Made by a program: the position numbers and the translations under genes. DNA of 47,797 nt from a virus: UHGV virus genome UHGV-0177318. One strand, 5' to 3'. The notes below the pieces were generated by a model that was not told the DNA's origin, did not search any database, and was given only the letters and a program-made list of their open reading frames with translations. Positions 9,051-41,413 of this stretch are shown here, one piece after another. Each line of letters opens with the position of its first letter. The stretch's first letter is position 1.

Positions 9051-12000
9051 CGATCTGGTTATTAAGCTGGATGTTGACCGCGCAACCTTCAGCGAGCAGG
9101 TCGCCCGAATCAAAGGGCAACTGACAGGAATGGCGGATGAGTCTGATAAAGTTCAGGCGCGAATGCAGCGTGCTGCGGACCGTCAGAGCGCTGCACTAAA
9201 GAGCGTGGGCGACGCTGGCGCGGCGGCCGCCGCAGACATGAAAGCCCGTCAGTCAGCCGCAACGGAAGGGCTGACAAAAGACTGGCAGAACGTTTCCAGG
9301 TCCGTTGATGAAACTCATCGCCGCGTGACCGAACTTAACCAACGCATGCGTGAGAATGACGGACAGGCTGCAGCGCTTGCCCGCCGACAGGATGAACTGG
9401 CGGCATCATTTTTCCGCCAGATTGACGGCGTTCGCCAGCTCAATGGTGAAACACAGTCGCTTGCGAACGTGCAGGCGCGCTTTCGCGCAGCGAGGGCACA
9501 GGGCAACATAACCCAGCAGGATTATCTCGCCCTTATTTCCCGCACCACGGCCCGGCAAAAAGAACTGCAGATCGTGGAGGAAAAATCGGCCGCAGCGCGC
9601 ACGCGATTCCTCAGCCAGCTGAAGCAACAGGTTGCAGAGCAAAAGCTCTCCGGTACCGAGCTGCTGCGCATGAAGGCGGCGCAGGTCGGTGCCAGCGATG
9701 CGGCTGAAGTTTATATCCGCAAGCTTGAAGCTGCCAAAGTGGCCACGCACGGTCTGGGGCTGCAAAGTGCTGCTGCCCGGCAAGAGCTGGGGGTACTTAT
9801 CGGCGAGGTCATGCGCGGTAACTTCGGTGCGCTGCGCGGCTCCGGGATCACACTGGCGAACCGGGCAGGATGGATAGACCAGCTGCTGTCGCTGCGCGGG
9901 CTTGGGATCGCCGGCTTGGTTGGTGGGATTGCCGCGGCGGTATTCGGACTGGGTAAGGCCTGGTATGACGGCAGCAAAGAGTCTGAGGAATTTAACAGGC
10001 AGCTGATCCTGACCGGGAACTACGCGGGGAAAACGTCAGGGCAGCTGCAGGCGCTGGCGCGCTCGCTGGCAGGTAATGGCATCACGCAGCATGCCGCTGC
10101 AGGCGTGCTGGCGCAGGTCGTTGGCAGCGGCGCGTTCAGCGGGAATGACGTCAGCATGGTCAGCAATGTTGCCGCCAGGCTGCAGCAGGCTACCGGACAG
10201 GCCGTCGACGAAACCATAAATCAGTTTAAGCGCCTGAAGGATGATCCGGTTAACGCGGTCGCGACGCTCAACGATTCCCTTCATTTTCTGACAGCCACCC
10301 AGTATGAACAGATAGCTTCTGCTCAGGCGCTGGGGGATTCTCAGAAGGCCGCCGAGCTGGCCATGCGGGCATATTCCGACGCGGTCATTCAGCGCGCCGG
10401 TGCGGTCGAGGATAATCTCGGAACCCTCGAAAAAGCCTGGAACTGGGTGAAGAATGCCGCCTCCGGTGCGTGGGATGCGATGCTTGGCATAGGGCGTAAT
10501 CCTGACACCGCGATGAAGCGCCAGGACTCTTTTGCTGAATGGCAGGCAGCAGAGAAGGAGTACCGCGCGCTTTCCAGCAATCTTAAGGTCGACCCGGATT
10601 ATGCCGGTAACAACGTTCTGCAGAAAGCTGATGCGGAAAGGCTGAGAAACGCGCGCCAGCAGGTGGAGCTGAAAAAGCAGGCTTACGATCTTGCCGATCA
10701 GCAATACGCTCAGGAAGGGCTGGCAGCCGCGCGGGAAAAAATGCGGACAGACCAGCAGGCTCAGGCAATCCGCAACCAGCAGCAGTTTAACCAGCTGGTG
10801 GAGTCCGGCGCGACGGCGGCAGAAAAGCGGGCTTCAGCAGAGAAAAAGCTCAGTCAGCTTATTGAGAAAAACCGCCAGGATGCGAAAGACGGTGTCGCCA
10901 CGCTGTGGACTGAAAAGGACATTGCCGCGGCCCGCGCCGGGATTGAAAAGCAGTGGAAAGATCCAAAAACGCCGAAAGGCAAAAGCTACTCAACGCCCGC
11001 CGGGGACAAAGCAGAGGAAAAGGCGCAGGCCGAACTTCTCACCCTTCAGGCCCAGCTTAAAACGCTTGAGCAGCATACCAGCGTGAATGACGTCATAAGC
11101 AAACAGCGTCAGGATCTCTGGCAGACTGAAAATCAGTTCACCGTTCTGCAGGAGGCTGCAGGGCGTCGTCAGCTTACGGCGCAGGAAAAATCCCTGCTGG
11201 CGCACAAGGAAGAAACGCTCGAGTACAAGCGGCAGCTGGCCGATCTGGGCGATAAGGTTGCCAGCCAGCAAAAGCTCAACCAGCTGGCCGATCAGGCCGT
11301 GAAGTTTGAGCAGCAGCAAAAAGCGGCCAGGGCGGGTCTGCAGGCTCAGTCTGAGGGGGTATCCACCCGGGAAGCCGGGCGACAAACTACGCTGCAGCGT
11401 CTCAGCGAAAGCTATTCGTACAACCCTCAGGCGCAGCAAAAGGTTCTCGAAGAGCAAAGGGCGACGTTCGAGGCTGAAGATGCTCTGCGCGCAAACTGGC
11501 TGGCCGGTGCGAAACAGGGCTGGGCCGAATATCAGGATTCAGCGACAAACGTTTTCAGCTCTGTTCAGCAGATTTCGCAGGCTACGTTCAGCGGGCTGGC
11601 GGGCCAGCTTACCAGCCTGACGACAACCGGGAAGGCGAGCTTCAGGGACTTCACCAGCTCGATCCTTAAAATGATAGTGTCCGTTATCAACCAGCTGCTG
11701 GTGGCTTACACCATCCAGAGCGCAATGGGCTGGGTTAGCGGCGGGGCGAAAATCTCCTCTGCAGGTCAGTCATTCGCGGTCCCGTCATACCGGCCACAGG
11801 GTTTTGACGTGGGCGGTTTTACCGGGCACGGCGGCAAGTACGAGCCAGCCGGTATCGTTCACCGCGGGGAATTCGTCTTCACCAAAGAATCAACCAGCCG
11901 TATCGGCGTGGCTAATCTCTATCGCCTGATGCGCGGGTATGCCTCGGGTGGTCTGGTCGGCGGCGGTAGCGCAGCCGGTGCTGGCATGGGCGGGATCAGT

Positions 12001-13301: not shown

Positions 13302-14021
13302 ATGCGTGAAAAATTGCTGGATGCTATCCGTCAGCACGTCGCTGCTGAATACCCCAAAGAAGCCTGCGGCCTGATTGTTCAGTCAGGCCAGCAGCAAATC
13401 TATATTCCCTGCCGCAACATTGCCGATAAACCCGAGGAGACATTCACGCTCTCCCCGGAAGACCAGCTCGCTGCCCGCGCGCGCGGTGAGATCATCATGC
13501 TCATTCATTCACATCCGGATGTGGTTCGGCTGGTGCCCTCAGAGCTGGACCGGATCCAGTGCGACTGGTCGGGTATTGAGTGGGGGATCATGTCCTGGCC
13601 GGACGGGGACTTTTGTACGATCTCCCCGCGTGAAGACCGGGATTATGCCGGGCGGCAGTGGGTGCTGGGTTACGCGGACTGCTGGTCGTTAATCCGTGAA
13701 TATTATCTGCGCGAATACGGCATTGTTCTCGGGGACTATTCGGTACCTTACGAATGGTGGGAGAGCGGCAAGGAGCGGCTCTACGACGACAACTGGGAGC
13801 GCGAGGGATTCGTTGAGATTGCCGCCGGTGCAATGCAGCCCGGTGACATCATCATGATGAGTGTGCAGGCATCGGTGACTAATCACGCCGCGGTATATGT
13901 GGGTGACAACATCATTCTCCATCATCTGTTCGGGCATCTTTCTTCGCGAACGCCTTATGGAAAATATTATCGCGACAGAACGGTCCGGGTGGTCAGGCAT
14001 AAGGACCGAATGCATGGTTAA
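13302..14021 (+). CDS. K: Tail tip assembly protein (lambda gpK-like; JAB/MPN + NlpC/P60 domains)
   Basis: An internal start at MREKLLDAIRQHVAAEYPKEACG right after the L stop gives 239 aa. Motifs HSHP and DCWSL...NHAAVYVG match gpK. The track start at 13203 would overlap L by about 100 nt. Confidence 0.88.
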   Translation: MREKLLDAIRQHVAAEYPKEACGLIVQSGQQQIYIPCRNIADKPEETFTLSPEDQLAARARGEIIMLIHSHPDVVRLVPSELDRIQCDWSGIEWGIMSWPDGDFCTISPREDRDYAGRQWVLGYADCWSLIREYYLREYGIVLGDYSVPYEWWESGKERLYDDNWEREGFVEIAAGAMQPGDIIMMSVQASVTNHAAVYVGDNIILHHLFGHLSSRTPYGKYYRDRTVRVVRHKDRMHG

Positions 14022-14631
14022 GACGCTTATTCTCGAAGGGAAAATGGCTAAAAAATTCGGTAAACGCGTTCAGTTTGATGTTGCCGATCTGCGCGAAATG
14101 CTCAGGGCCATGTGTTCACAGGTTCCCGGATTCAAAAAATATATGTCGGAAGCTCATATGAAGGGGATCCGTTTCGCCTTTTTTAACGGTGACAACAATA
14201 TCGGGCTGGAAGAGTTTGATATGACCCGCGGTGGAAGCGTGTACCGGATCGTGCCCGTTTATGAGGGGGCCAAAAATTCAGGCGTCCTGCAGATAGTTGT
14301 CGGTGCCGTTGCGCTGGTCGCTGCATTCTTTACCGCCGGTGCGAGTATGGCAGCCTGGGGGGCTGCGATGAGTGCAACAGCCATCAGCGCCACGTCAATT
14401 TTGACCGGGGTCGGGGTGTCAATGATGCTGGGTGGCGTTGTCCAGATGCTTACGCCCCAGCCATCCTTCGGCGCGGGTAAATCCTCCAGCACGGACAACA
14501 CGCCTAACTACGCCTTCGGGGCGCCGGTTAATACCGTCGCTATGGGGCATCCAGTCCCCCTGGCCTATGGTCTGATCGAGGCAGGGGGAGCGATAGTCAG
14601 CGCCGGTATGTACTCGAGCGATCAGCAATAG
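14014..14631 (+). CDS. I: Tail tip assembly protein (lambda gpI-like)
   Basis: Start MVKTLILEGKMAKKFG overlaps the K stop (ATGGTTAA). GAKNSGVLQIVVGAVALVAAFFTAGASMAAWGAA...LGGVVQMLTP matches gpI (GAKSGGVFQIVLGAAAIAGSFFTAGATLAAWGAA). Confidence 0.88.
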   Translation: MVKTLILEGKMAKKFGKRVQFDVADLREMLRAMCSQVPGFKKYMSEAHMKGIRFAFFNGDNNIGLEEFDMTRGGSVYRIVPVYEGAKNSGVLQIVVGAVALVAAFFTAGASMAAWGAAMSATAISATSILTGVGVSMMLGGVVQMLTPQPSFGAGKSSSTDNTPNYAFGAPVNTVAMGHPVPLAYGLIEAGGAIVSAGMYSSDQQ

Positions 14632-14716
14632 TGAAATGCAACCTAATAAGATGAACGTTACATTGCGATCACCCTTGGTTATCATGTCCAAAAAGATGCC
14701 AATCAAGGAGATGAAA

Positions 14717-15193
14717 GTGAAAAAATACGGTTTGGTCTTATTAGGTGTGCTGTTTATTTCAGGTTGTGCCCCCCAAAATCAGAACAACAATTTACAAAAA
14801 CAATACGCTGACTTAGCAAAGTGTGAAGATAACATCACGATGCCAAAACAAATGCCGCAAAGTAAAAAGGAGTTTGCGGAGTTTTTATCCAAGGCTGCGC
14901 TTAGTGCCTCGGCAGATCAGTTTGTTACCCAGAAGCGTATAGAAATTCTGCAATTAGTTGGGTGGGATAATTCAGTAGCTGATGCAATAACGACATGTGG
15001 AGCTACCAGAAAGAGCAAGCTAAAAGATATTGGGTCGAATGTGTTTGAAACGATGAAAGCAAACACTAAAGATACAGAAGAGCGTCGCGCTCTTGTTGAG
15101 GCTTATAGTTCGTGGGAGGCTTATGTAACCAGCCAAACTCCGCTCGCAAAACAGGACTTTGACTCTAAAGTTAGCTATTACAAAAACATGTAA
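14717..15193 (+). CDS. Lipoprotein of unknown function (moron inserted between I and J)
   Basis: Signal peptide plus lipobox: (M)KKYGLVLLGVLFISG|C. SD AAGGAG (14705..14710) lies 6 nt before GTG 14717, whereas ATG 14711 abuts the SD. AT-richer than the flanks and has its own terminator. No lambda counterpart at this position. Confidence 0.75.
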   Translation: MKKYGLVLLGVLFISGCAPQNQNNNLQKQYADLAKCEDNITMPKQMPQSKKEFAEFLSKAALSASADQFVTQKRIEILQLVGWDNSVADAITTCGATRKSKLKDIGSNVFETMKANTKDTEERRALVEAYSSWEAYVTSQTPLAKQDFDSKVSYYKNM

Positions 15194-15221
15194 TAAAACG
15201 CCATCATTAATACTAACAATT

Positions 15222-15245
15222 AACCCAGCTCAGGCTGGGTTTTTT
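15222..15245 (+). terminator. Intrinsic terminator after the lipoprotein moron
   Basis: aaCCCAGC-tcag-GCTGGGtt followed by T5, ending 12 nt before the J start. Confidence 0.75.
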
Positions 15246-15257
15246 AATGGGGTAAAA

Positions 15258-18200
15258 ATGCAACTTCTCCATGGTGAAACCATCATTCAGGGTGCTAAAG
15301 GGGGCGGTGGGAGCGCGCATACTCCGGTTGAGCAACCTGACGATTTGCTGTCGGTCGCAAAATTAAAAATGCTCATTGCCGTTTCTGAGGGGGAAATACA
15401 GGGCGACCTGACCGCACAGAACATTTTTCTCAACGATACGCCGCTTGCAAACGACAGCGGGGAATACAACTTCAGCGGCGTGAAATGGGAATTCCGGAAG
15501 GGCACACAGGACCAGACCTATATTGCCGGGATGCCCCAGGTCGATAACGAGCTGGCGGTTGGCACAACTGTCACCACCACCGCGCCATGGACGCGCCAGT
15601 TTACCAACCTTTCCCTGGATGCCATCCGCATCAAGCTCAGCCTTCCGGTCCAGTATCTCTATAAAGATAACGGCGATATGGTGGGCACGGTCACCGAGTA
15701 TGCGATCGATTTATCAACGGATGGCGGCGCCTGGAAAACGGTTGTAAACGGCAAGTTTGACGGAAAGACCACGACGGAATATCAGCGTGACCACCGTATT
15801 GATCTGCCAAAATCCACGTCCGGCTGGTCTGTCAGGGTCAGGCGTATTACGGCTGATGCCAGCGGATCAAATTCGAAACTGGTTAACGCCTTCAAGGTGT
15901 TTTCGTATGCGGAAGTCATCGACAGCAAGCTTCGTTATCCTTTAACCGCGCTCCTGTATGTCGAAGTGGACAGCAGCCAGTTCAACGGCAGCGCGCCGAA
16001 AGTGACCTGTAAGATAAAAGGCAAGCTGATTAAGGTTCCGGATAATTACGATCCGATAACCCGAACCTATTCTGGTTCATGGTCCGGCGGGTTCAAAATG
16101 GCCTGGTCCAATAACCCTGCCTGGATCTTTTACGATCTGGTTCTGGATGAAATTTACGGCATGGGCACGCGCGTGGATGCGTACATGGTGGATAAGTGGG
16201 CGCTGTATTCAATTGCACAGTATTGCGACGAAATGGTTTCCGACGGCGCCGGTGGTACCGAACCGCGTTTCACCTGCAACGTTTTCATTCAGAGCCAGGA
16301 GGACGCCTGGCAGGTACTTAACGATCTCGCCGCGGTATTTCGTGGAATAACGTTCTGGGGCAACGATCAGATTTATGTCCAGGCAGACGTCCCGCAGGAC
16401 GATGTTGACTGGGTTTATAACGCCTCAAACGTTATCGATGGGCTGTTTACTTATGCGGGCGGCTCATACAAGAATCGCTACAGCTCCTGCCTCGTGTCCT
16501 GGTCCGATCCGCAGAACCATTACAGCGATACCGTTGAGGGAGTCTACGATTCAGAGCTTGTAGAGCGTTACGACGTCAGGCAAACGTCCCTGACCGCAAT
16601 CGGCTGCACCTCGCAAAGTGAAGCGCACCGGCGCGGTCGCTGGGTATTACTCTCCAATGCCAAAGACGGGACCGTATCGTTTGGGGTGGGGCTGGACGGC
16701 TATATTCCTCTGCCCGCTGAAATTATCGGTGTCGCCGATCCTTTCCGTTCCGGAAAGGAGAACGGGGGCCGCATAGTGGCGGTCAATGGCCGCCAGATTA
16801 CGCTGGATCGAGAAATAGATTACGCAGCGAAAGACCGGCTGGTGGTTAACCTGCCCGACGGAAAAGCCCAGACGCGGACAATCAGCGCGGTGAGCGCCGA
16901 TAAAATAACGGTGACGGTGGCTACGGCCTTCAGTCAGGCACCTGCCGCTGGTGCTGTCTGGGCGATAGACAGTGATAACCTCGCGATACAGTACTTCCGG
17001 GTCACTTCAATCGCGGCCAACGATGACAGCACAGGCGGTTTCACAATTACGGCCGTTCAGCACGATCCAAACAAATACCGTTACATCGATGACGGCGTTC
17101 GGATCGAGTCGCCCCCGATCACCGTCACGCCGATAAGCGTCCTGTCTGCGCCGAAGAATATCGTGGTGACTGAGAGCGATCATGTGTCTCAGGGTCTGAC
17201 GGTAGCAAGCCTTGACGTGTCATGGGACAAGGTTGAGGGCGCAATCCGGTACGTTGCCCAGTGGCGCAAGGATAACGGGGACTGGATCAACGTTCCGGTT
17301 ACCAGCGCGCAGGGGTTCTCGGTTCAGGGCATTTATTCAGGCAGCTATGATGTGCGCGTCCGGGCGCTGAATGCGCAGGATACGTCGTCACCATGGGGAT
17401 ACGCCGAAACAACGTACCTTTCCGGAAAAACGGGAAAACCGGGTACCCCGCTCAACTTCCTGGCGACCGAAGATGTGGTCTGGCATATCGATCTGACCTG
17501 GAAATTTCCGGATGGCTCAGGCGACACGGCCTATACAGAGATTCAGCGCGCCACAACCTCTGACTACGCCAATCCTGAACTGCTGGTCCTGGTGCCGTAC
17601 CCGGCTGCAGATTATCAGCATGGCCCCATGCCTGCTGGCGTTCGCCAGTGGTACCGCGCGCGCCTGATTGACCGTATCGGTAATGTCGGTGACTGGACCG
17701 ACTGGGTCATGGGCACGTCCTCGATAGATGTCAGCGAAATAACCAATGACATTCTGGAGGACATGAAAGATTCCGACACGTTCAAAGACCTGATCGAGAA
17801 CGCGGTGGACAGCAATGAAAAAGTTGCAGGCATGGCGGATGACATCAAAAAGCATGCCGACGAGCTGGAGCAGCAGGCGAAAGACATCCAGGAGAACGCT
17901 GACGGGCTGGCGCAGGCCGAAGTGAAGATAGACGAGATTTCAGTGTCGATGGACGGCATGACGGGAGGTGTGAAGAACTCGGCAATTGCGATAATCCAGG
18001 CCAACCTTGCTCAGGTGGCCACGCGTAAAACTCTGTCGGCATCGGTAGCCGGTAACAGCGCACAGCTGGACCGCATTGATGAGGTGATCGTCACTGACAG
18101 GGAGGCAACGGCACGCGCATTGCTGAGCCTGCAGACGAACGTCAACGGTAATACGGCATCCATCAACAGTCTGAGCCAGACGGTTTCGAATTATCAGCAG

Positions 18201-18722
18201 GCCACGGCGACGCAGATCAACGCCATCACTGCGACCATAAACGGTAATACGGCGGCGATAACAACAAACGCCCAGGCCATTGCGAACGTAAACGGCCAGC
18301 TCAGCGCGATGTACAACATCAAGGTTGGGGTAACGAGTAATGGCCAGTATTACGCCGCAGGCATGGGGATCGGGGTGGAGAATACGCCATTAGGGATGCA
18401 GTCGCAGGTTATCTTCCTGGCCGATCGTTTTGCCGTGACTACTGCAGCCGGTAACAGCGTGGCGTTGCCGTTTGTTATTCAGAACGGGCAGACGTTCATC
18501 AGGGCCAGCTTCATTCAGGACGGTACCATTGAGAACGCTAAAATCGGCAACTTTATTCAGTCCAATAACTATGTGGCTGGATCTGTAGGCTGGAAGCTTG
18601 ATAAGGGAGGAACGTTCGAAATTAACGGTGTGGGCGGAGGTGGAAGGATGCTGATATCGAGCACTCTCATTCAAATCTACGACAGCAATAACGTGCTGCG
18701 CGTCAGAATGGGGTTATGGTAA
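15258..18722 (+). CDS. J: Central tail fibre / host-specificity protein (lambda gpJ-like)
   Basis: Start MQLLHGETIIQGAKGGGGSAHTP; 1154 aa. Conserved J blocks: DKWALYSIAQYCDEMVSDGAGGTEPRFTCN, FTITAVQHDPNKY, SQFLV-like C-terminal region. The track start at 15159 runs through the upstream terminator. Confidence 0.92.
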   Translation: MQLLHGETIIQGAKGGGGSAHTPVEQPDDLLSVAKLKMLIAVSEGEIQGDLTAQNIFLNDTPLANDSGEYNFSGVKWEFRKGTQDQTYIAGMPQVDNELAVGTTVTTTAPWTRQFTNLSLDAIRIKLSLPVQYLYKDNGDMVGTVTEYAIDLSTDGGAWKTVVNGKFDGKTTTEYQRDHRIDLPKSTSGWSVRVRRITADASGSNSKLVNAFKVFSYAEVIDSKLRYPLTALLYVEVDSSQFNGSAPKVTCKIKGKLIKVPDNYDPITRTYSGSWSGGFKMAWSNNPAWIFYDLVLDEIYGMGTRVDAYMVDKWALYSIAQYCDEMVSDGAGGTEPRFTCNVFIQSQEDAWQVLNDLAAVFRGITFWGNDQIYVQADVPQDDVDWVYNASNVIDGLFTYAGGSYKNRYSSCLVSWSDPQNHYSDTVEGVYDSELVERYDVRQTSLTAIGCTSQSEAHRRGRWVLLSNAKDGTVSFGVGLDGYIPLPAEIIGVADPFRSGKENGGRIVAVNGRQITLDREIDYAAKDRLVVNLPDGKAQTRTISAVSADKITVTVATAFSQAPAAGAVWAIDSDNLAIQYFRVTSIAANDDSTGGFTITAVQHDPNKYRYIDDGVRIESPPITVTPISVLSAPKNIVVTESDHVSQGLTVASLDVSWDKVEGAIRYVAQWRKDNGDWINVPVTSAQGFSVQGIYSGSYDVRVRALNAQDTSSPWGYAETTYLSGKTGKPGTPLNFLATEDVVWHIDLTWKFPDGSGDTAYTEIQRATTSDYANPELLVLVPYPAADYQHGPMPAGVRQWYRARLIDRIGNVGDWTDWVMGTSSIDVSEITNDILEDMKDSDTFKDLIENAVDSNEKVAGMADDIKKHADELEQQAKDIQENADGLAQAEVKIDEISVSMDGMTGGVKNSAIAIIQANLAQVATRKTLSASVAGNSAQLDRIDEVIVTDREATARALLSLQTNVNGNTASINSLSQTVSNYQQATATQINAITATINGNTAAITTNAQAIANVNGQLSAMYNIKVGVTSNGQYYAAGMGIGVENTPLGMQSQVIFLADRFAVTTAAGNSVALPFVIQNGQTFIRASFIQDGTIENAKIGNFIQSNNYVAGSVGWKLDKGGTFEINGVGGGGRMLISSTLIQIYDSNNVLRVRMGLW

Positions 18723-19024: not shown

Positions 19025-19662
19025 GTGGATTCGAAGTTTATAACAGTGCTGGAAAATTGCTGGTTGATTCACAAAACAGATCAACACTTTTTTATGATCA
19101 GCGTGTGCTCGGCGCAGTGACTGACAAAGGACATTACCGTGTGGATAGTCCGTTCGGAAACGGAAGCACACTGGGCTTTACCCAGCCGCAGTTCTGGAAT
19201 GATGGGAATTTGCGTTGGCTGCAGCTGGATACTAATAAGTATGGCTTACCAGGCGCTGACCTTCTGGAAGACAATGCGGGCAGTATGATACGCACGTCCA
19301 GAAACGTTGGAATGCAAAGCGGATATCTGGATGTTTTCGACAGCGCGGGGAATCTTATCTGGAGCGCCGCCTCGGCATCGAAAATGCCGCGCGTGGTGGG
19401 CTTTTTCGACGTGCCGGCCAATTACGATCTACAGAACAATACCTTTGCGGTAAACCTGAGTTTTAACCCGTGGATTCTGGTTAACAACTGCCCTGGTAAC
19501 CTCAGTGACGACGGTACGGTTGTTGGTTATTCAGGAATCGTTCTCAAATGGACAGGCTCACAGCTGCAGGGGAGGTACATCACAAAAAATCAGCGCAACT
19601 GGAGCCAGACACTTCAGGGGCGAGGGCTACGAATTCCCATCGCTCAGTTTGTCGGAATTTGA
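19021..19662 (+). CDS. Hypothetical protein (tail-module associated)
   Basis: 213 aa, ATGA overlap with the previous ORF. The motif GFEVYNSAGKLLVD recurs internally as GYLDVFDSAGNLIW. Confidence 0.6.
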   Translation: MSGFEVYNSAGKLLVDSQNRSTLFYDQRVLGAVTDKGHYRVDSPFGNGSTLGFTQPQFWNDGNLRWLQLDTNKYGLPGADLLEDNAGSMIRTSRNVGMQSGYLDVFDSAGNLIWSAASASKMPRVVGFFDVPANYDLQNNTFAVNLSFNPWILVNNCPGNLSDDGTVVGYSGIVLKWTGSQLQGRYITKNQRNWSQTLQGRGLRIPIAQFVGI

Positions 19663-19989
19663 TACGGGCGGGACGCGGGGGTATTGAGTAGCGATCATGT
19701 TTTGCTTAACACCTTTTGCAGGTTCGAAGCGGTATACGACATCAAGCTTATCCGTTTTCTTATAACAGATGTTGCTGAGCCGCTTATTTATATGTCGGCT
19801 GAAAATGCCATTGCTGCTGTCTGAAATTACGTTAACTTCCCTCGTGGCACAGTCGATATTTACGTGAATATCTCCCCCCAGAGATAAGCGCGCCGCATCC
19901 ACCGGGTAATCCATTCTGAAGGCATAGTCTCTGTCTTTGTCGGCACAGCCAGCCGCCAGCAAAAGTGCCACGGCAAATAATCGTTTCAT
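19627..19989 (-). CDS. Lipoprotein of unknown function (reverse-oriented moron in tail module)
   Basis: MKRLFAVALLLAAG|C is a signal peptide plus lipobox. It is the opposite strand to the whole late operon. An AT-rich divergent intergenic region lies upstream (19990..20115). Confidence 0.7.
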   Translation of the reverse strand: MKRLFAVALLLAAGCADKDRDYAFRMDYPVDAARLSLGGDIHVNIDCATREVNVISDSSNGIFSRHINKRLSNICYKKTDKLDVVYRFEPAKGVKQNMIATQYPRVPPVSNSDKLSDGNS

Positions 19990-21435: not shown

Positions 21436-21637
21436 ACAATACTCAGGCATCTAACAAGTAAAACGCCGCCCATCGCATGCAAGAATTTGCGGCGGCTAAA
21501 ATCTGCTCATTAAGAGTTACTGCCATAAAATTTACAAAACTCATAATTCGAAACGACATAGAAACTTAGAAACGAAACGGCGAAGCTTTAAGCATTCATC
21601 ACAGACCCTCTGTCTTGCGTGCATACTCAAATGAAAC

Positions 21638-21657
21638 TACTGTATATAAAAACAGTG
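21638..21657 (+). promoter_or_regulatory. LexA (SOS) box upstream of umuDC
   Basis: TACTGTATATAAAAACAGTG. It has the CTGT-N8-ACAG core and differs by about one base from the E. coli umuDC box as I recall it. It lies 16 nt upstream of the umuD ATG. Confidence 0.85.
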
Positions 21658-21672
21658 TTTGAGGTATGCAAC

Positions 21673-22092
21673 ATGGAATTTATCAGGCCTGCAGAACTGC
21701 GAGAAATTATAGCTCTCCCGCTTTTCAGTGACTTAGTGCAGTGTGGTTTCCCAAGCCCAGCGGCTGATTACGTTGAACAGCGCATCGATCTCAATGAGTT
21801 ACTTGTTGCTCACCCGAGCTCAACGTATTTCGTCAAAGCCGCGGGCGATTCTATGATCGAAGCCGGGATCAGCGACGGTGATCTGCTGGTAGTGGACAGC
21901 TCCAGGACTGCTGAGCATGGTGACATTGTCATCGCTGCGGTGGAAGGGGAGTTCACTGTTAAACGCCTGCAGCTGCGCCCGAACGTGCAACTAAACCCTA
22001 TGAACAGCGCCTACAGTCCGATAGTTATTGGCTGCGAAGATACGCTGGACGTTTTCGGCGTCGTGACTTTCATCGTTAAATCGGCGAGCTGA
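21673..22092 (+). CDS. umuD: UmuD, translesion polymerase V accessory subunit (S24 self-cleaving)
   Basis: 139 aa from [44 protein letters not shown]...GDSM...VKRL, nearly colinear with E. coli UmuD (139 aa). Confidence 0.95.
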
Positions 22093-22094
22093 AC

Positions 22095-23363
22095 ATGTTC
22101 GCGCTCTGTGATGTGAATTCGTTCTACGCATCATGCGAGACGGTGTTTCGGCCTGATTTGAGGGGGCGCCCGGTTGTCGTTCTCTCGAATAATGATGGCT
22201 GCGTAATTGCGCGCAGCGCCGAGGCCAAAGCCGCCGGAATTACCATGGGTGAGCCTTTCTTCAAGCAAAAGGAGCTTTTCCGGCGCGCTGGCGTTGTTTG
22301 CTTCAGCAGCAATTACGAGCTGTACGCTGATATGTCGAACCGGGTAATGACGACGCTGGAAGAAATGAGCCCTCGCGTCGAAATATATAGCATCGATGAA
22401 GCTTTTTGCGACCTTACTGGTGTTCGAAACTGCCGGGACCTGACAGAGTTTGGCAAAGAGATCCGCGCGACGGTTCTGAAGCGTACGCACCTGACTGTCG
22501 GGATTGGCATCGCGAAAAGTAAGACCCTTGCAAAGCTGGCAAATCACGCCGCCAAAAAATGGCAGCGTCAGACGGGCGGAGTTGTTGATTTGTCCAATAT
22601 CGATCGCCAGCGTCGGTTGTTGGCTATTGTGCCTGTGGAGGACGTATGGGGCGTCGGCAGGCGCATCAGTAAGAAGCTGAACGCCATGGGCATCAAAACG
22701 GCTCTGGACCTCTCAGAACAAAGCACATGGATTATCCGTAAACACTTTAACGTGGTACTCGAGCGAACGGTCCGGGAGTTGCGCGGCGAGCCTTGTCTTG
22801 ATCTGGAGGAGTTTGCACCAGCTAAGCAGGAAATCGTCTGCAGTCGGTCATTCGGTGAACGCGTTACCGAATACGAACAGATGCGGCAGGCTATTTGCAG
22901 CTATGCGGCGCGTGGTGCTGAAAAGCTTCGCGGCGAACATCAGTATTGCCGTTTTATCTCTGCGTTCGTGAAGACGTCACCTTTTGCCCTGAACGAGCCG
23001 TATTACGGCAACAGCGCGTCAGTGAAGCTTCTCACCCCCACTCAGGATTCCCGCGACATCATCAACGCCGCGGTAAAGTGCCTGGACAAAATCTGGAAGG
23101 ATGGGCACCGCTATCAAAAGGCTGGAATTATGCTGGGAGATTTTTTCAGTCAAGGGGTGGCACAGCTGAACCTTTTCGATGAGCACGCGCCGCGCGCTGG
23201 AAGCGATAAGTTGATGGATGTGCTCGATCACTTGAACGCGAAAGAAGGGAAAGGAACACTCTTCTTTGCCGGGCAGGGCATTCAACAGCAGTGGCAGATG
23301 AAGCGGCAGTTGCTTTCACCCCGATATACTACTCGCATATCAGATTTATTAATTGTGAAGTAA
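22095..23363 (+). CDS. umuC: UmuC, Y-family DNA polymerase V catalytic subunit
   Basis: 422 aa. [41 protein letters not shown]..., the same length and N-terminus as E. coli UmuC. Confidence 0.95.
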
Positions 23364-23697: not shown

Positions 23698-23723
23698 AAG
23701 CCCTGCGTCAACAGGGCTTTTTT
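23698..23723. terminator. Terminator hairpin after the XRE/ImmA operon
   Basis: AAGCCCTG-cgtcaa-CAGGGCTT immediately after the ImmA stop, with a T6 run on the + side. Confidence 0.55.
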
Positions 23724-24205
23724 CAATAAAATTCAAAGCAAAGCTGTGCTGTTTGATAGCCCAATTTATCGAGCATCGTTTCTGCGAAAAGATCCGCCTG
23801 CCATTCAGAATCTTCATTTTGTTCCGGCATGGCATTCGCAAAGTGTAAGGCTGGCTTATGTTGTAGTAGCAAGTGCCCGAGCTCATGGAATATAACAAAT
23901 AACGCTGATCGTTCACCGCCACATGCCATTTCATAGATATGGTTTGGAACCCTGATAGTCAGTTTGTCAGGTTCACAGTGTCCAATCGTTAGACCCAGCG
24001 TTTCCTGAAACCATTCGTCATCATCCATTGGATCGAGGACAATATTCCATTGAGATAATGTTTCCAGCGCTACGTCAAATCTGCGCGGTCTACGCCGGTA
24101 TTTATACTTACTAGTAAATCCGAGTGCAAAGCAAGCATTTACAGCTATCGCTTTAATTTCCATTTCACTCAGAGGACGAACACGTGTACCGCGCATTAAA
24201 TGCAT
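23723..24205 (-). CDS. ImmA/IrrE-family zinc metallopeptidase (COG2856)
   Basis: 160 aa with HEXXH in VIFHELGHLLLQH. It lies immediately downstream of an XRE HTH gene, the canonical ImmR/ImmA-type pairing. Confidence 0.8.
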   Translation of the reverse strand: MHLMRGTRVRPLSEMEIKAIAVNACFALGFTSKYKYRRRPRRFDVALETLSQWNIVLDPMDDDEWFQETLGLTIGHCEPDKLTIRVPNHIYEMACGGERSALFVIFHELGHLLLQHKPALHFANAMPEQNEDSEWQADLFAETMLDKLGYQTAQLCFEFY

Positions 24206-24222
24206 AACAGTTTCCTAAGCAG

Positions 24223-24582
24223 TTATTTTTTGTTGATTTCTGCAAGTAATTCTGCAAATTTTTTTAATTCTTCATGGGTGAATTCCGATTTTGCAAAACC
24301 AGCAACAAGCATTTGTTGTTGCTTTGGTAAACCTTCAATAGGTACCAATTCATTCGCGATAGAAGCTAAAACATCGAGATCATCAATGTAATAACCTTGC
24401 GCTGCAAAAAGTTCATTGATTGCCGTTACCCATTTCTCTGGTATTTTTTTAGTCCCTGTTTCGAGCCCGCTTAGAAAAGCAGGTGTTGTTCCTAAAGCCT
24501 TTGCCATTGTAAGCAAAGTATAACCAGTATCGATCCGAGCTTTCCTTACGGCCTTTCCGAAATCAGTAAGAGCCATAGTCAT
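24223..24582 (-). CDS. XRE-family helix-turn-helix transcriptional regulator
   Basis: 119 aa. The N-terminal FGKAVRKARIDTGYTLLTMAKALGTTPAFLSGLETG is a Cro/CI-type HTH. Confidence 0.8.
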   Translation of the reverse strand: MTMALTDFGKAVRKARIDTGYTLLTMAKALGTTPAFLSGLETGTKKIPEKWVTAINELFAAQGYYIDDLDVLASIANELVPIEGLPKQQQMLVAGFAKSEFTHEELKKFAELLAEINKK

Positions 24583-24681: not shown

Positions 24682-25353
24682 TTAAGTTATTATTTCTATT
24701 AGATTTTTACCTTGATTTCTGGCGTTTCCAACCGCGCGTGTAACAGCGTGCCAGATAAACTTGTCGGCAGGCACTGCGCCGTCGGCTGCTATCTCTTCAG
24801 CTTCTTTCCCGCCTATATCCTGACGTATCCACTCGCGAGCCGCTTCCGGTGACAGAACCAGTGGCCGGCGATCGTGAATATCGACCAGACCTTTATCAGC
24901 TGCAGATGTCACGATGAGAAAACCTTCAGCTTCGTCTCCACGCTCAAATGGTGTGCTGCCGATAGCCGCCATAAATATTGGCTGGCCGTCGGCCCGGTGA
25001 ATGAAGTAGGGCTGTTTCTTGTCTGCTTCCTTCTTCCATTCGAACCAGCCATCCGCAAAGCAGATCGCCCGGCCATGTTGCCAGAGAGGCTTGAACATTC
25101 GGCTGGTGGCCGCCGTCTCGACGCGTGCGTTAATCAGTGGCGGTTTATCCCACCACTCGGGCGCGTAAGACCACAGGACTGGATCAAGATGCAGCTGCTC
25201 GTTGCGTTCGCTCAGGAGCAGCACCTTGGTACCGGGCGAGACGTTGTACCGGCCTATAGGTTCCGGGTCATACGCAATGTCACGATCGGCTTCATCGGCC
25301 AAGTATGCCAGATATTCTTCACGGGTTTGGGCTTGTGCAAAACGTCCACACAC
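24682..25353 (-). CDS. yedK: SOS-response-associated peptidase (SRAP/YedK-like abasic-site processing protein)
   Basis: 223 aa starting MCGRFAQAQTREEYLAYL (catalytic Cys2). It is colinear with E. coli YedK as I recall it (PLINARVETAATSRMFKPLWQHGRAICFADGWFEWKKE...). Confidence 0.9.
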   Translation of the reverse strand: MCGRFAQAQTREEYLAYLADEADRDIAYDPEPIGRYNVSPGTKVLLLSERNEQLHLDPVLWSYAPEWWDKPPLINARVETAATSRMFKPLWQHGRAICFADGWFEWKKEADKKQPYFIHRADGQPIFMAAIGSTPFERGDEAEGFLIVTSAADKGLVDIHDRRPLVLSPEAAREWIRQDIGGKEAEEIAADGAVPADKFIWHAVTRAVGNARNQGKNLIEIIT

Positions 25354-26211: not shown

Positions 26212-27405
26212 TCACCCGGCTTTAAAGACAATTTCAGCATGAGGAACTTCTACCCATTCCACATGGTTCTGGGTATAAACTTTTGTCGATTTTGCATCAC
26301 TATGGGCCATCCTTGCCTGCGGATCGATACCTTGTCTTTCGAAAATATGAGCCGCCAGCGCTCTAATCTCGTGGAAAGTTGGCCTTTCTTTGATAGGTAA
26401 TTCTGCCGCTACACCTATCCGGTCCCGCAGCTCTGAAAATGCCCTGCTCAAATAATCAGGGGCCACCTGTGTTGGGTGGTTAACTTCCTTGCTTATCGGA
26501 TTGCTTCTCTTTTCCAGAAGCCGGTGAATAACATAAGGACTGGCCACATTGTCTCTGCTGTTGTCGATGATCTCTTTCAGGGCCCTGCCGATCGGAATAG
26601 CGACGTGTGAAGCCTCTTTGTGCTGCACTTTTTGCCGATGAATGTAAAGCGTTCCGAATATGCCAGCCTCCTCCTGATCGAACCATACACAGCCGCAAAC
26701 CCCTTCTTGAGGTTCCTTGATCGAGTACCGGATCCGGGAAACTTCCAGGCGCGCTTGCGTAGTTTGTATGGCAAGGTCCATTGCAGTCTTCAGCCAAGGT
26801 TCAGCAGCTGCATGTATGGCCAGGAACTGTTCCAAAGTAAGTCGCCGGCGGACCTTTTTATCGACACGCCGCATTTTTTTCCGTGTTGCAGGGTTATCCA
26901 TCATTAGCGATTCATCAACAGCATAAGAGAATAGCTTTTTCAGGAAGCTAACTTTTCGGTTCTGAACATTGGCCGACGATTCAGAATGGTAATTTCGTAT
27001 GTAGGCATTTACGTGCTCAAGCTCAATATCGCATGCGGGTATGTTATTAAAAAATTCTTTAACCCTGATGGCATCATTATTCCAATCGTCAAGTGTGCTT
27101 TTAGACGGCTGCTCATCTTTGATTGCTCTCTCCATAATGCGATCAACATGTTCAGAAAACGGGTGGGCTTCACCATTCAGCCCTCCCGATTCCCGAATTA
27201 ATGAATCTATCGATGGTGTATTTTCAGGGCGCATCCTCAGGTTATATTCTCGGGCGATGGCGATAGCCATTACTCGATCCGAACCGAGAGTTTTCTTTTT
27301 CCCAGTTATAAGCGTGAACTTATACACGCCACGATCTTTATCAAAAAAAAGATAATCAGGAAGGTGGCGGTATTCTTTTTTTCGTGGCCTTGCTGCCATG
27401 GTCAA
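26212..27405 (-). CDS. int: Tyrosine integrase
   Basis: 397 aa. C-terminal catalytic region TFHEIRALAAHIFERQG...AHSDAKSTKVYTQNH (H-x-x-R ... Y). Adjacent to attP and xis. Confidence 0.92.
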   Translation of the reverse strand: MTMAARPRKKEYRHLPDYLFFDKDRGVYKFTLITGKKKTLGSDRVMAIAIAREYNLRMRPENTPSIDSLIRESGGLNGEAHPFSEHVDRIMERAIKDEQPSKSTLDDWNNDAIRVKEFFNNIPACDIELEHVNAYIRNYHSESSANVQNRKVSFLKKLFSYAVDESLMMDNPATRKKMRRVDKKVRRRLTLEQFLAIHAAAEPWLKTAMDLAIQTTQARLEVSRIRYSIKEPQEGVCGCVWFDQEEAGIFGTLYIHRQKVQHKEASHVAIPIGRALKEIIDNSRDNVASPYVIHRLLEKRSNPISKEVNHPTQVAPDYLSRAFSELRDRIGVAAELPIKERPTFHEIRALAAHIFERQGIDPQARMAHSDAKSTKVYTQNHVEWVEVPHAEIVFKAG

Positions 27406-40720: not shown

Positions 40721-41413
40721 ATGAATTTACAAGAACTGGAATATACGCGGATTGAACTGCGCCGTGCGCTGGCGGATTTATCAGGATCGACAAAAGGGCA
40801 GCTGCAGGCGTTCAGTGAGCATCCACCAGCAGATAAGAATAAATACCCCCGGCACCATCCTGAAATCGTCATGGAGGGTGGGGAAGGTTGTGGATCGAAG
40901 GTTGTAAAAACTCTGGCCACTCCGCTTTATGTTCTTGAGACAAGGAGCCGTCGCCGACCTTTACCGCCTATTAAGGATGCGGAGTTCGCTTGTTCAGCAT
41001 GGCGTCGTTCGGTCAATGGTCTGGGGGAGCATTTGCAGGCATGGGTGCGGTACTGCTATGGGCATGACCTTGCTTTCCGGTACCAGAGGTTAATGTGCCA
41101 GCACGTATGGGAAGAGTTCCAGCGTCAGCATAGCGGCAAAAAAATCCAGGACCGTGTCACTAAAAAACTGGTTGGGCTTGTCTGGCTGGCGGCGCAAGAA
41201 GTTGCTGCCTCGCGTAATAACGATACCTATCAGGAGTATGCTGGTGCAGCTCTGGCGCGCATGGTCAGCGTTGAGCGTTCCACCTGGCTTAGAGTGTATT
41301 CAGGCCACTGGGCGGCTTTCAAAGCGTCGTTTGCTGAAATGGACAGCCAGGCACTAAGCGAAATTTTGTCACGGTACGAAGGGTACCAAGAACTGAAAGT
41401 GGCGGAAATGTGA
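40721..41413 (+). CDS. Q: Late-gene antiterminator Q (QuuQ/phage-82-type family)
   Basis: 230 aa. It lies directly upstream of a promoter plus a short-leader terminator and the lysis genes. Size and DUF968 synteny match Qin quuQ. There is no sequence motif I can verify by eye. Confidence 0.65.
   Translation: MNLQELEYTRIELRRALADLSGSTKGQLQAFSEHPPADKNKYPRHHPEIVMEGGEGCGSKVVKTLATPLYVLETRSRRRPLPPIKDAEFACSAWRRSVNGLGEHLQAWVRYCYGHDLAFRYQRLMCQHVWEEFQRQHSGKKIQDRVTKKLVGLVWLAAQEVAASRNNDTYQEYAGAALARMVSVERSTWLRVYSGHWAAFKASFAEMDSQALSEILSRYEGYQELKVAEM

Follow-up and report, generated by a model that had tools for sequence, protein, structure and literature searches.

Comparative analysis identifies the lipoprotein gene between tail genes I and J of a phi80-like phage genome as phi80 morF, a slot-moving moron

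What is a lipoprotein gene doing inside a lambdoid tail operon, wedged between genes I and J? The question is raised by UHGV-0177318, a viral genome of 47,797 nucleotides that was analyzed over its whole length (the window). This genome belongs to a phi80-like temperate lambdoid phage. Its collinearity with phi80 begins at the terminase gene and reaches approximately position 18,000; an integrase and a Q-like antiterminator are also encoded. The initial annotation had called the inserted gene a lipoprotein moron and had proposed that it is possibly matched to the receptor specificity of the adjacent J. The elements that it had read from the DNA are all present where it placed them, but the proposed match to J fails. 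The features on which our argument draws are as follows.

14014..14631, plus strand: tail assembly gene I (Pfam Lambda_tail_I; 97-100% identical to I in 67 relatives)
14632..15241, plus strand: morF moron cassette (DNA missing in MorF-less relatives; 93% nucleotide identity to phi80 morF)
14657..14662, plus strand: predicted sigma-70 -35 hexamer, GTTACA (from a consensus scan; overlaps the -35 of the phi80 depositors, which lies one base to the right)
14680..14685, plus strand: predicted -10 hexamer, TATCAT (17-nt spacer; transcription start predicted near 14692)
14705..14710, plus strand: Shine-Dalgarno sequence AAGGAG, read directly, 6 nt before GTG 14717
14717..15193, plus strand: morF coding sequence, 158-aa prolipoprotein (GTG start, stop codon 15191-15193; phrog_8179, E = 8e-75)
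15222..15245, plus strand: intrinsic terminator (8-bp stem AACCCAGC/GCTGGGTT, loop TCAG, T6 run)
15258..18722, plus strand: tail tip/host specificity gene J (Pfam FNIII-A_GpJ, Phage-tail_3 and Phage_Tail_Tip)
26215-27399, minus strand: integrase
40721-41410: Q-like antiterminator

As for the insert itself, I and J had been said to abut in lambda, which is approximately right, the lambda gap being 60 nt. The gap in the window is 626 nt, of which ~570 bp are extra DNA, and across relatives it measures 625-631 nt in loci with MorF vs. 53-54 nt in loci without. The base composition changes with it. The ORF has a GC content of 0.41 against 0.55 and 0.53 in the flanks, the profile along the window runs at 0.39-0.43 in the insert and 0.53-0.62 on either side, and all 57 MorF loci show the same contrast (0.37-0.49 vs. 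0.52-0.57). Composition and gap length in relatives thus bear out the AT-richer insert of about 625 bp that had been reported. Its left junction is the stop codon of gene I (TAG, 14629-14631), straight after which the I-side similarity to the MorF-less phage mEp213 ends in an alignment, and its right junction is the T-run before J, 12 nt past which J begins with ATG 15258. The empty I-J gap of mEp213 (L013 1167-1207) has a hairpin of its own directly before J, with a UUCG tetraloop and a U-run (-16.2 kcal/mol, z = -2.0). A terminator-like structure therefore precedes J with or without the moron, whose right junction lies at that T-run.

Within the insert, the gene starts in the GTG region rather than at ATG 14636, which an automatic annotation had chosen, because all 160-aa homologs begin at the aligned Met. 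The depositors of phi80 used an in-frame ATG 6 nt upstream (14711 here), which leaves the mature protein unchanged. The match to PHROG 8179, a family that carries no assigned function, spans residues 1-158, i.e., the full length of the protein. The DNA of the region is 93-94% identical to that of phages phi80, Eeyore, and Flotzy, and the protein shares 95% of its residues (93% of its nucleotides) with phi80 MorF, which occupies the same I-J slot. In FN582354.1, a partial phi80 record, this element is labelled "MorF lipoprotein precursor; moron gene product" (CBH95072.1), and a -35, a -10, a transcription start, a signal peptide for signal peptidase II, an acylated Cys, and a rho-independent terminator are marked; the gene is named morF in the complete genome JX871397.1 (PHI80_20). 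These identities mark the window element as an ortholog of phi80 morF, a moron that had already been catalogued, and what is reported here is a rediscovery. The description "lipoprotein moron" was hence apt on both counts, but the existing phi80 annotation had been missed.

The phi80 copy itself departs from the family in one respect. In phi80 (L009, JX871397.1, 1186-1638), a premature TAA shortens the protein to 150 aa, which removes the family-invariant last nine residues, SKVSYYKNM. Among 22 loci of the I-J clade that were checked, phi80 alone is truncated at the C-terminal end. A separate metagenomic copy (L028 3362-3835) is a 67-aa morF pseudogene.

The protein has the features expected of an exported lipoprotein. 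Its N terminus reads MKKYGLVLLGVLFISG followed by C, with a positively charged n-region (MKK), a hydrophobic h-region (YGLVLLGVLF), and a lipobox (I-S-G-C) that fits the pattern [LVI][ASTVI][GAS]C; the signal peptide is coded by 14717-14764 and Cys17 by 14765-14767. The 158-aa lipoprotein with its Shine-Dalgarno sequence had been read correctly by the initial annotation. A lipobox is found in every aligned family member, and Cys17, Cys36, and Cys94 are each present in all of the sequences aligned (22/22), which suggests that Cys36 and Cys94 may form a periplasmic disulfide. According to the +2 rule of Lol sorting, lipoproteins go to the outer membrane unless Asp follows the acylated Cys. Since the +2 residue is Ala in the window MorF, the protein is predicted to be sorted to the outer membrane; Asp is at this position in no family member. 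The mature domain (142 aa) is all-alpha. An AlphaFold model built on the 22-sequence alignment (pLDDT 82, pTM 0.73) shows a disordered signal peptide and tether, and then helices at residues 22-34, 50-80, 85-116, 120-139, and 142-157.

Computed over hundreds of pairs, dN/dS amounts to 0.07 among members of the I-J clade, 0.09 among those of the H-M clade (see below), and 0.12 for comparisons between the two; such values indicate strong purifying selection on MorF. These values, together with the match to phrog_8179, reject a chance ORF. Conservation is strongest at residues 61-100 and 121-158, and the C-terminal 40 residues are nearly invariant across prophages of eight genera (Escherichia, Citrobacter, Enterobacter, Kluyvera, Leclercia, Atlantibacter, Pseudescherichia, and Salmonella). 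Searches for known relatives of MorF were negative throughout. No Pfam family, including Lambda_Bor, was found at E ≤ 0.1, nor any PADLOC family at the same cutoff; sequence-profile searches of NCBIfam and PDB gave no meaningful match; and Foldseek comparison of the model with viral models and with PDB gave none at E ≤ 0.001. A phasin match in NCBIfam (22 bits vs. a cutoff of 99.7) only reflects amphipathic helices and was discarded. MorF showed no homology to Cor, Llp, or Bor; its match to phrog_1119 (Cor) has an E value of 0.049 and is confined to signal-peptide residues 1-30. Similarity to Bor/Iss, to Lom, or to a virulence family was not detected either. A search of the accessible literature, to which the phi80 genome paper (J Bacteriol 2012) does not belong, returned no experimental work on MorF.

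The promoter, which the initial annotation could not name with confidence, is placed at 14657-14685. A consensus scan alone is no better than chance here (2 sites found vs. 1.6 expected), and the promoter is convincing because of comparative evidence. The phi80 record has its -10 and transcription start at positions equivalent to those in the window, and MorF homologs from another slot of the tail operon, between genes H and M, hold the same promoter element equally far from the start codon at 56-64% protein identity. Between the I-J and H-M clades, identity is 100% in the -35 hexamer, 85% in the -10 hexamer, and 80% from the Shine-Dalgarno sequence to the start codon; it is 45% in the spacer (17 nt in 8/9 H-M sequences, 18 in L018), 22% in the 10 nt upstream of the -35, 22-33% in the flanks, and 44% in the signal-peptide codons. 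Positions T1, A2, A5, and T6 of the -10 are invariant in 16/16 aligned cassettes, including two outliers that are 43-45% identical (L008 in the H-M slot and L065 in a third slot between K and I). At the sequence level, such conservation identifies the hexamers as the footprint of a functional sigma-70 promoter belonging to the mobile unit. From this anatomy, we infer that the promoter would drive morF while the prophage is repressed.

The clean terminator that had been noted 12 nt before J is confirmed by its fold energy (-14.5 kcal/mol, z = -4.0) and by shuffling, since none of 200 shuffles folded as well. Across all loci of the I-J slot, stem and T-run do not vary and the loop is TCAG or TCAT; a terminator is also annotated in the phi80 record. 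A scan with Rfam over 13500-16500 returned nothing real. The cassette thus combines extra DNA, deviant GC, a promoter of its own as judged from the comparative footprint, and a terminator of its own, which is a moron in the sense of Juhala and Hendrix.

The family to which it belongs is tiny. When 1.84 billion cluster representatives were searched exhaustively with an HMM, 27 MorF clusters were found, nearly all of 140-172 aa, while a word-indexed search found 45, of which those with an organism name are all from Enterobacteriaceae; ten of the more remote clusters were scanned and yielded no Pfam family above threshold. The cassette is present in 3/5,426 complete E. coli genomes, two of them from laboratory strains. 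At each of the 57 MorF loci examined, the gene occupies one of three slots of the tail-tip block and points in the same direction as the tail genes. The I-J slot holds the phi80-like clade (25 loci, ≥91% amino acid identity). The H-M slot, between the tape-measure gene H and M, holds about 31, in prophages of Citrobacter, Enterobacter, Kluyvera, and related genera. There, the distance from H to MorF is always ~50-100 nt, and 0.1-4.8 kb of variable cargo come after MorF. The K-I slot holds one. Comparison of these loci identifies a cassette that moves between slots yet stays in the tail-tip block, in a small family limited to Enterobacteriaceae. This repeated settling hints at some connection to the tail or to phage entry, although it could also reflect no more than the tolerance of a Q-antiterminated late operon for inserts that bear a terminator.

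The H-M slot is a cargo hotspot in the Citrobacter, Enterobacter, and Kluyvera prophages, with MorF as the first gene after H and variable cargo between MorF and M in L016-L062. A SNIPE/T5orf172 nuclease gene lies there on the strand opposite to MorF in L004-L007 (8544-10157, minus strand), and other cargo ORFs look Arc-like or antirepressor-like from their sequence alone. In L008, a SocA_Panacea gene (10728-11171) lies between K and I. The window also carries other genes of interest. Downstream of the side tail fibre gene is a umuD/umuC-like pair (21619-23363, plus strand; 157 aa and 422 aa), at a site where relatives annotate a "UmuD-like protein," and this is probably another accessory module. 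By motif, an ORF with a HELGH metalloprotease signature beside an HTH-like ORF (23723-24582, minus strand) resembles an ImmA/IrrE-plus-repressor pair, and an ORF starting MCGRFAQ (24682-25353, minus strand) resembles SRAP/YedK.

The distribution of MorF among close relatives bears on whether the virion needs it. We compared 67 loci in which the I protein is ≥97% identical to that of the window. MorF is present in 16 and missing in 51 (76%), and the isolated, viable phages LLS, mEp213, and mEp043 also do without it. The core formed by H, M, L, K, and J is shared by phages with and without MorF, at median identities of 96-100%. There is no co-variation of MorF with variants of H, M, L, or K, both groups being 96-100% identical to the window; small but significant shifts (≤1%) in M, L, and the J N terminus are as expected from linkage around the insertion. 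Taken together, the empty sites, the viable phages without MorF, and the shared tail core identify MorF as an accessory gene and not a tail component.

Whether MorF is matched to J can be judged from the same 67 loci, in which we assigned J to classes from its last 110 aa. MorF is present in 3/14 loci of class A (like the window), 1/8 of class B (like phi80 and mEp213), and 8/22 of class C (a third type, about 63% identical), which amounts to no association (chi-square p = 0.36). Consistently, a single MorF clade (≥91% amino acid identity) adjoins J tips that are mutually 63-79% identical. The gene that co-varies with the J C terminus is a different one, found in the slot after J, gp22, and gp23 where phi80 has cor.

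19627-19989, minus strand: cor-slot lipoprotein gene (120 aa, N terminus MKRLFAVALLLAAG followed by C; phrog_25729, no assigned function)

All class A loci (14/14) carry this 120-aa lipoprotein, and Cor takes its place in every class B locus for which a cor-slot gene was detected (7/7; Fisher p = 9e-6). Among isolated phages, LLS, which shares the J tip of the window (96%), has the 120-aa lipoprotein and lacks MorF; phi80 combines a different J tip (78%) with both Cor and MorF. The proposal that MorF is matched to the receptor specificity of the adjacent J therefore finds no support, and the co-variation that had been suggested as a check points to the cor-slot gene. The tracking of J class, together with two sets of published data, makes this gene the candidate for J-matched exclusion in the window, rather than MorF: in the BASEL collection, receptor-specifying loci and cognate exclusion proteins are directly downstream of gpJ (PMC8594841), and in mEp phages, lipoproteins from the structural cluster were shown by experiment to give receptor-matched exclusion (PMC11893012). 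It is a good candidate for a receptor-matched analogue of Cor. The protein has no match in Pfam or PADLOC, and it has relatives (30-48% identical) in T1-like phages of Escherichia and Klebsiella; a literature search for the receptor of the BASEL phage that carries a homolog returned nothing. Upstream of the tip, the coiled-coil region of J (residues 851-1050) is mosaic independently of the tip. Identity to the window over residues 851-950 and 951-1050 is 99% and 99% in LLS, 79% and 63% in Flotzy, and 78% and 85% in Eeyore, and the last 100 residues of J in these three phages are 96-99% identical to those of the window.

What, then, might MorF do? By the rules of lipoprotein biogenesis, the precursor would be exported, diacylated at Cys17, and cut by signal peptidase II, after which Lol sorting would deliver it to the inner leaflet of the outer membrane. 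Tethered by a short disordered segment, a bundle of four to five helices would reside in the periplasm, where a Cys36-Cys94 disulfide probably staples it. Transcription would come from its own promoter in the prophage and from Q-antiterminated read-through during lytic growth. The broader proposal of the initial annotation, a factor that excludes phages or modifies the host surface, is plausible. Our preferred reading, which we put forward tentatively, is that MorF, expressed by the prophage, works in the envelope on a conserved component of the host and so blocks a step of phage entry. By binding such a component, it would protect the lysogen at entry, i.e., by superinfection exclusion, while masking of the receptor of the adjacent J would fall to the cor-slot lipoprotein. 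A conserved host partner appears more plausible than a fast-evolving phage partner because of the low dN/dS (0.07-0.12) and the near-invariant C-terminal 40 residues, and the link to entry is drawn because all 57 loci are in the tail-tip block, in three slots. There is a precedent in HK97 gp15, a moron product from a tail operon that excludes phages at injection (PMC3594210), and another in the structural-cluster lipoproteins of mEp phages, for which phage exclusion was demonstrated experimentally (PMC11893012). In addition, phi80/Lula lysogens resist T4 and impair P1, the responsible gene being unnamed in that paper (PMC2885432), although these phenotypes cannot simply be credited to MorF because the phi80 protein is without the invariant last nine residues. 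Exclusion factors are often under diversifying selection. MorF shows none, which speaks against an exclusion reading. A more specific version, which we consider doubtful, is that MorF founds a new class of exclusion lipoproteins that block siphophage entry after adsorption without masking a receptor, acting on the passage of the tail tip or tape measure through the periplasm or on a conserved host entry factor. This would explain both the three settlements in the tail-tip block and the independence from the J tip.

The readings that compete with an entry-blocking envelope factor differ in how they meet this evidence. One of them, rather unlikely but deserving attention, is that MorF serves lysogenic conversion as an outer-membrane lipoprotein that aids the host and is unrelated to phages, be it in serum resistance (as lambda Bor), envelope stress tolerance, adhesion, or permeability. 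Such a role would suit the classic-moron logic of a cassette with its own promoter and terminator, the purifying selection and cross-genus conservation, which fit a host-directed function, and the spread of the gene through the prophages of gut Enterobacteriaceae. Bor, too, is an outer-membrane lipoprotein of prophage origin, as cited in PMC3594210. However, a host-fitness role sits poorly with the lack of similarity to Bor/Iss, Lom, and virulence families and with the rarity of the gene, and it offers no obvious reason for its sole occurrence in the tail-tip block, in three slots. Another competing reading is a lytic-cycle function. MorF would then matter mainly when made in bulk by late read-through, for example to condition the envelope for lysis or release, or to save progeny from inactivation on debris. 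The gene is always co-oriented and embedded in the late tail operon, in three slots, hence necessarily transcribed late, and the window encodes a Q-like antiterminator. We regard this as improbable, since a conserved two-hexamer promoter would be needless for a purely late gene, LLS, mEp213, and mEp043 propagate without MorF, and the gene lies outside the lysis cassette.

Lower still in probability is the version raised by the initial annotation, a blocker of the Cor/Llp type that acts on the receptor recognized by the adjacent J and would thereby exclude homologous phages and spare progeny from adsorbing to debris. The gene does adjoin J, and T5 Llp, the Cor proteins of phi80, N15, and HK022, and the mEp Lpp proteins are precedents. 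Yet MorF is present independently of J class, with which the cor-slot gene co-varies exactly; phi80 already has Cor for FhuA; the distant MorF members lie between H and M, away from J; the sole match to the Cor family is to the signal peptide; and the cognate exclusion genes in BASEL are downstream of gpJ. Finally, we give hardly any credence to MorF being a structural or assembly component of the tail, which its position among tail-tip genes might suggest. As an exported lipoprotein, MorF would leave the cytoplasm, where tails are assembled, and the presence/absence pattern, with 76% of tail modules with a ≥97% identical I lacking MorF and a core of H, M, L, K, and J common to phages of both kinds, rules out such a role.

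The feature was thus already catalogued, and what our comparison adds is the evidence around it: the promoter footprint shared across clades, the delineation of a small slot-moving family, and the exclusion of the J-matched idea in favor of the cor-slot lipoprotein. If MorF is a periplasmic blocker of entry, it might explain unassigned resistance phenotypes of phi80-type lysogens. Since the phi80 copy is truncated, a full-length allele such as that of the window is preferable for functional tests. The two copies are orthologs that have the I-J slot, promoter, Shine-Dalgarno sequence, lipobox, and terminator in common, and they differ in that the window has the full-length 158-aa protein and, downstream, a J tip and a cor-slot gene of another class. 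The Tai tail-assembly-interference system, which has been studied in phi80, is unrelated and is encoded upstream of the packaging genes.

Among better-known systems, lambda Bor/Iss resembles MorF as a prophage moron that encodes an outer-membrane lipoprotein expressed in lysogens, but it has another genomic location and another predicted fold, and MorF has no match to Pfam Lambda_Bor. The Cor proteins of phi80, N15, HK022, and the mEp phages and the Llp protein of T5 are likewise phage lipoproteins encoded in or next to tail or host-recognition genes. Cor (~77 aa) and Llp are small, whereas MorF is larger, all-alpha, and without homology to them; Cor tracks the class of the J tip, which MorF does not, and both coexist in phi80. 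The third system is HK97 gp15, which is also the product of an autonomous moron in a lambdoid tail operon, is targeted to the envelope, is expressed by the prophage, and excludes phages by means other than receptor blocking (PMC3594210). It differs from MorF in being a small, YebO-like inner-membrane protein that is unrelated to MorF in sequence and whose gene sits between those for the tail chaperones and the tape measure, and exclusion is demonstrated for gp15 while it is a candidate function for MorF. If MorF does block entry from the periplasm, it would be an outer-membrane-anchored counterpart to HK97 gp15.
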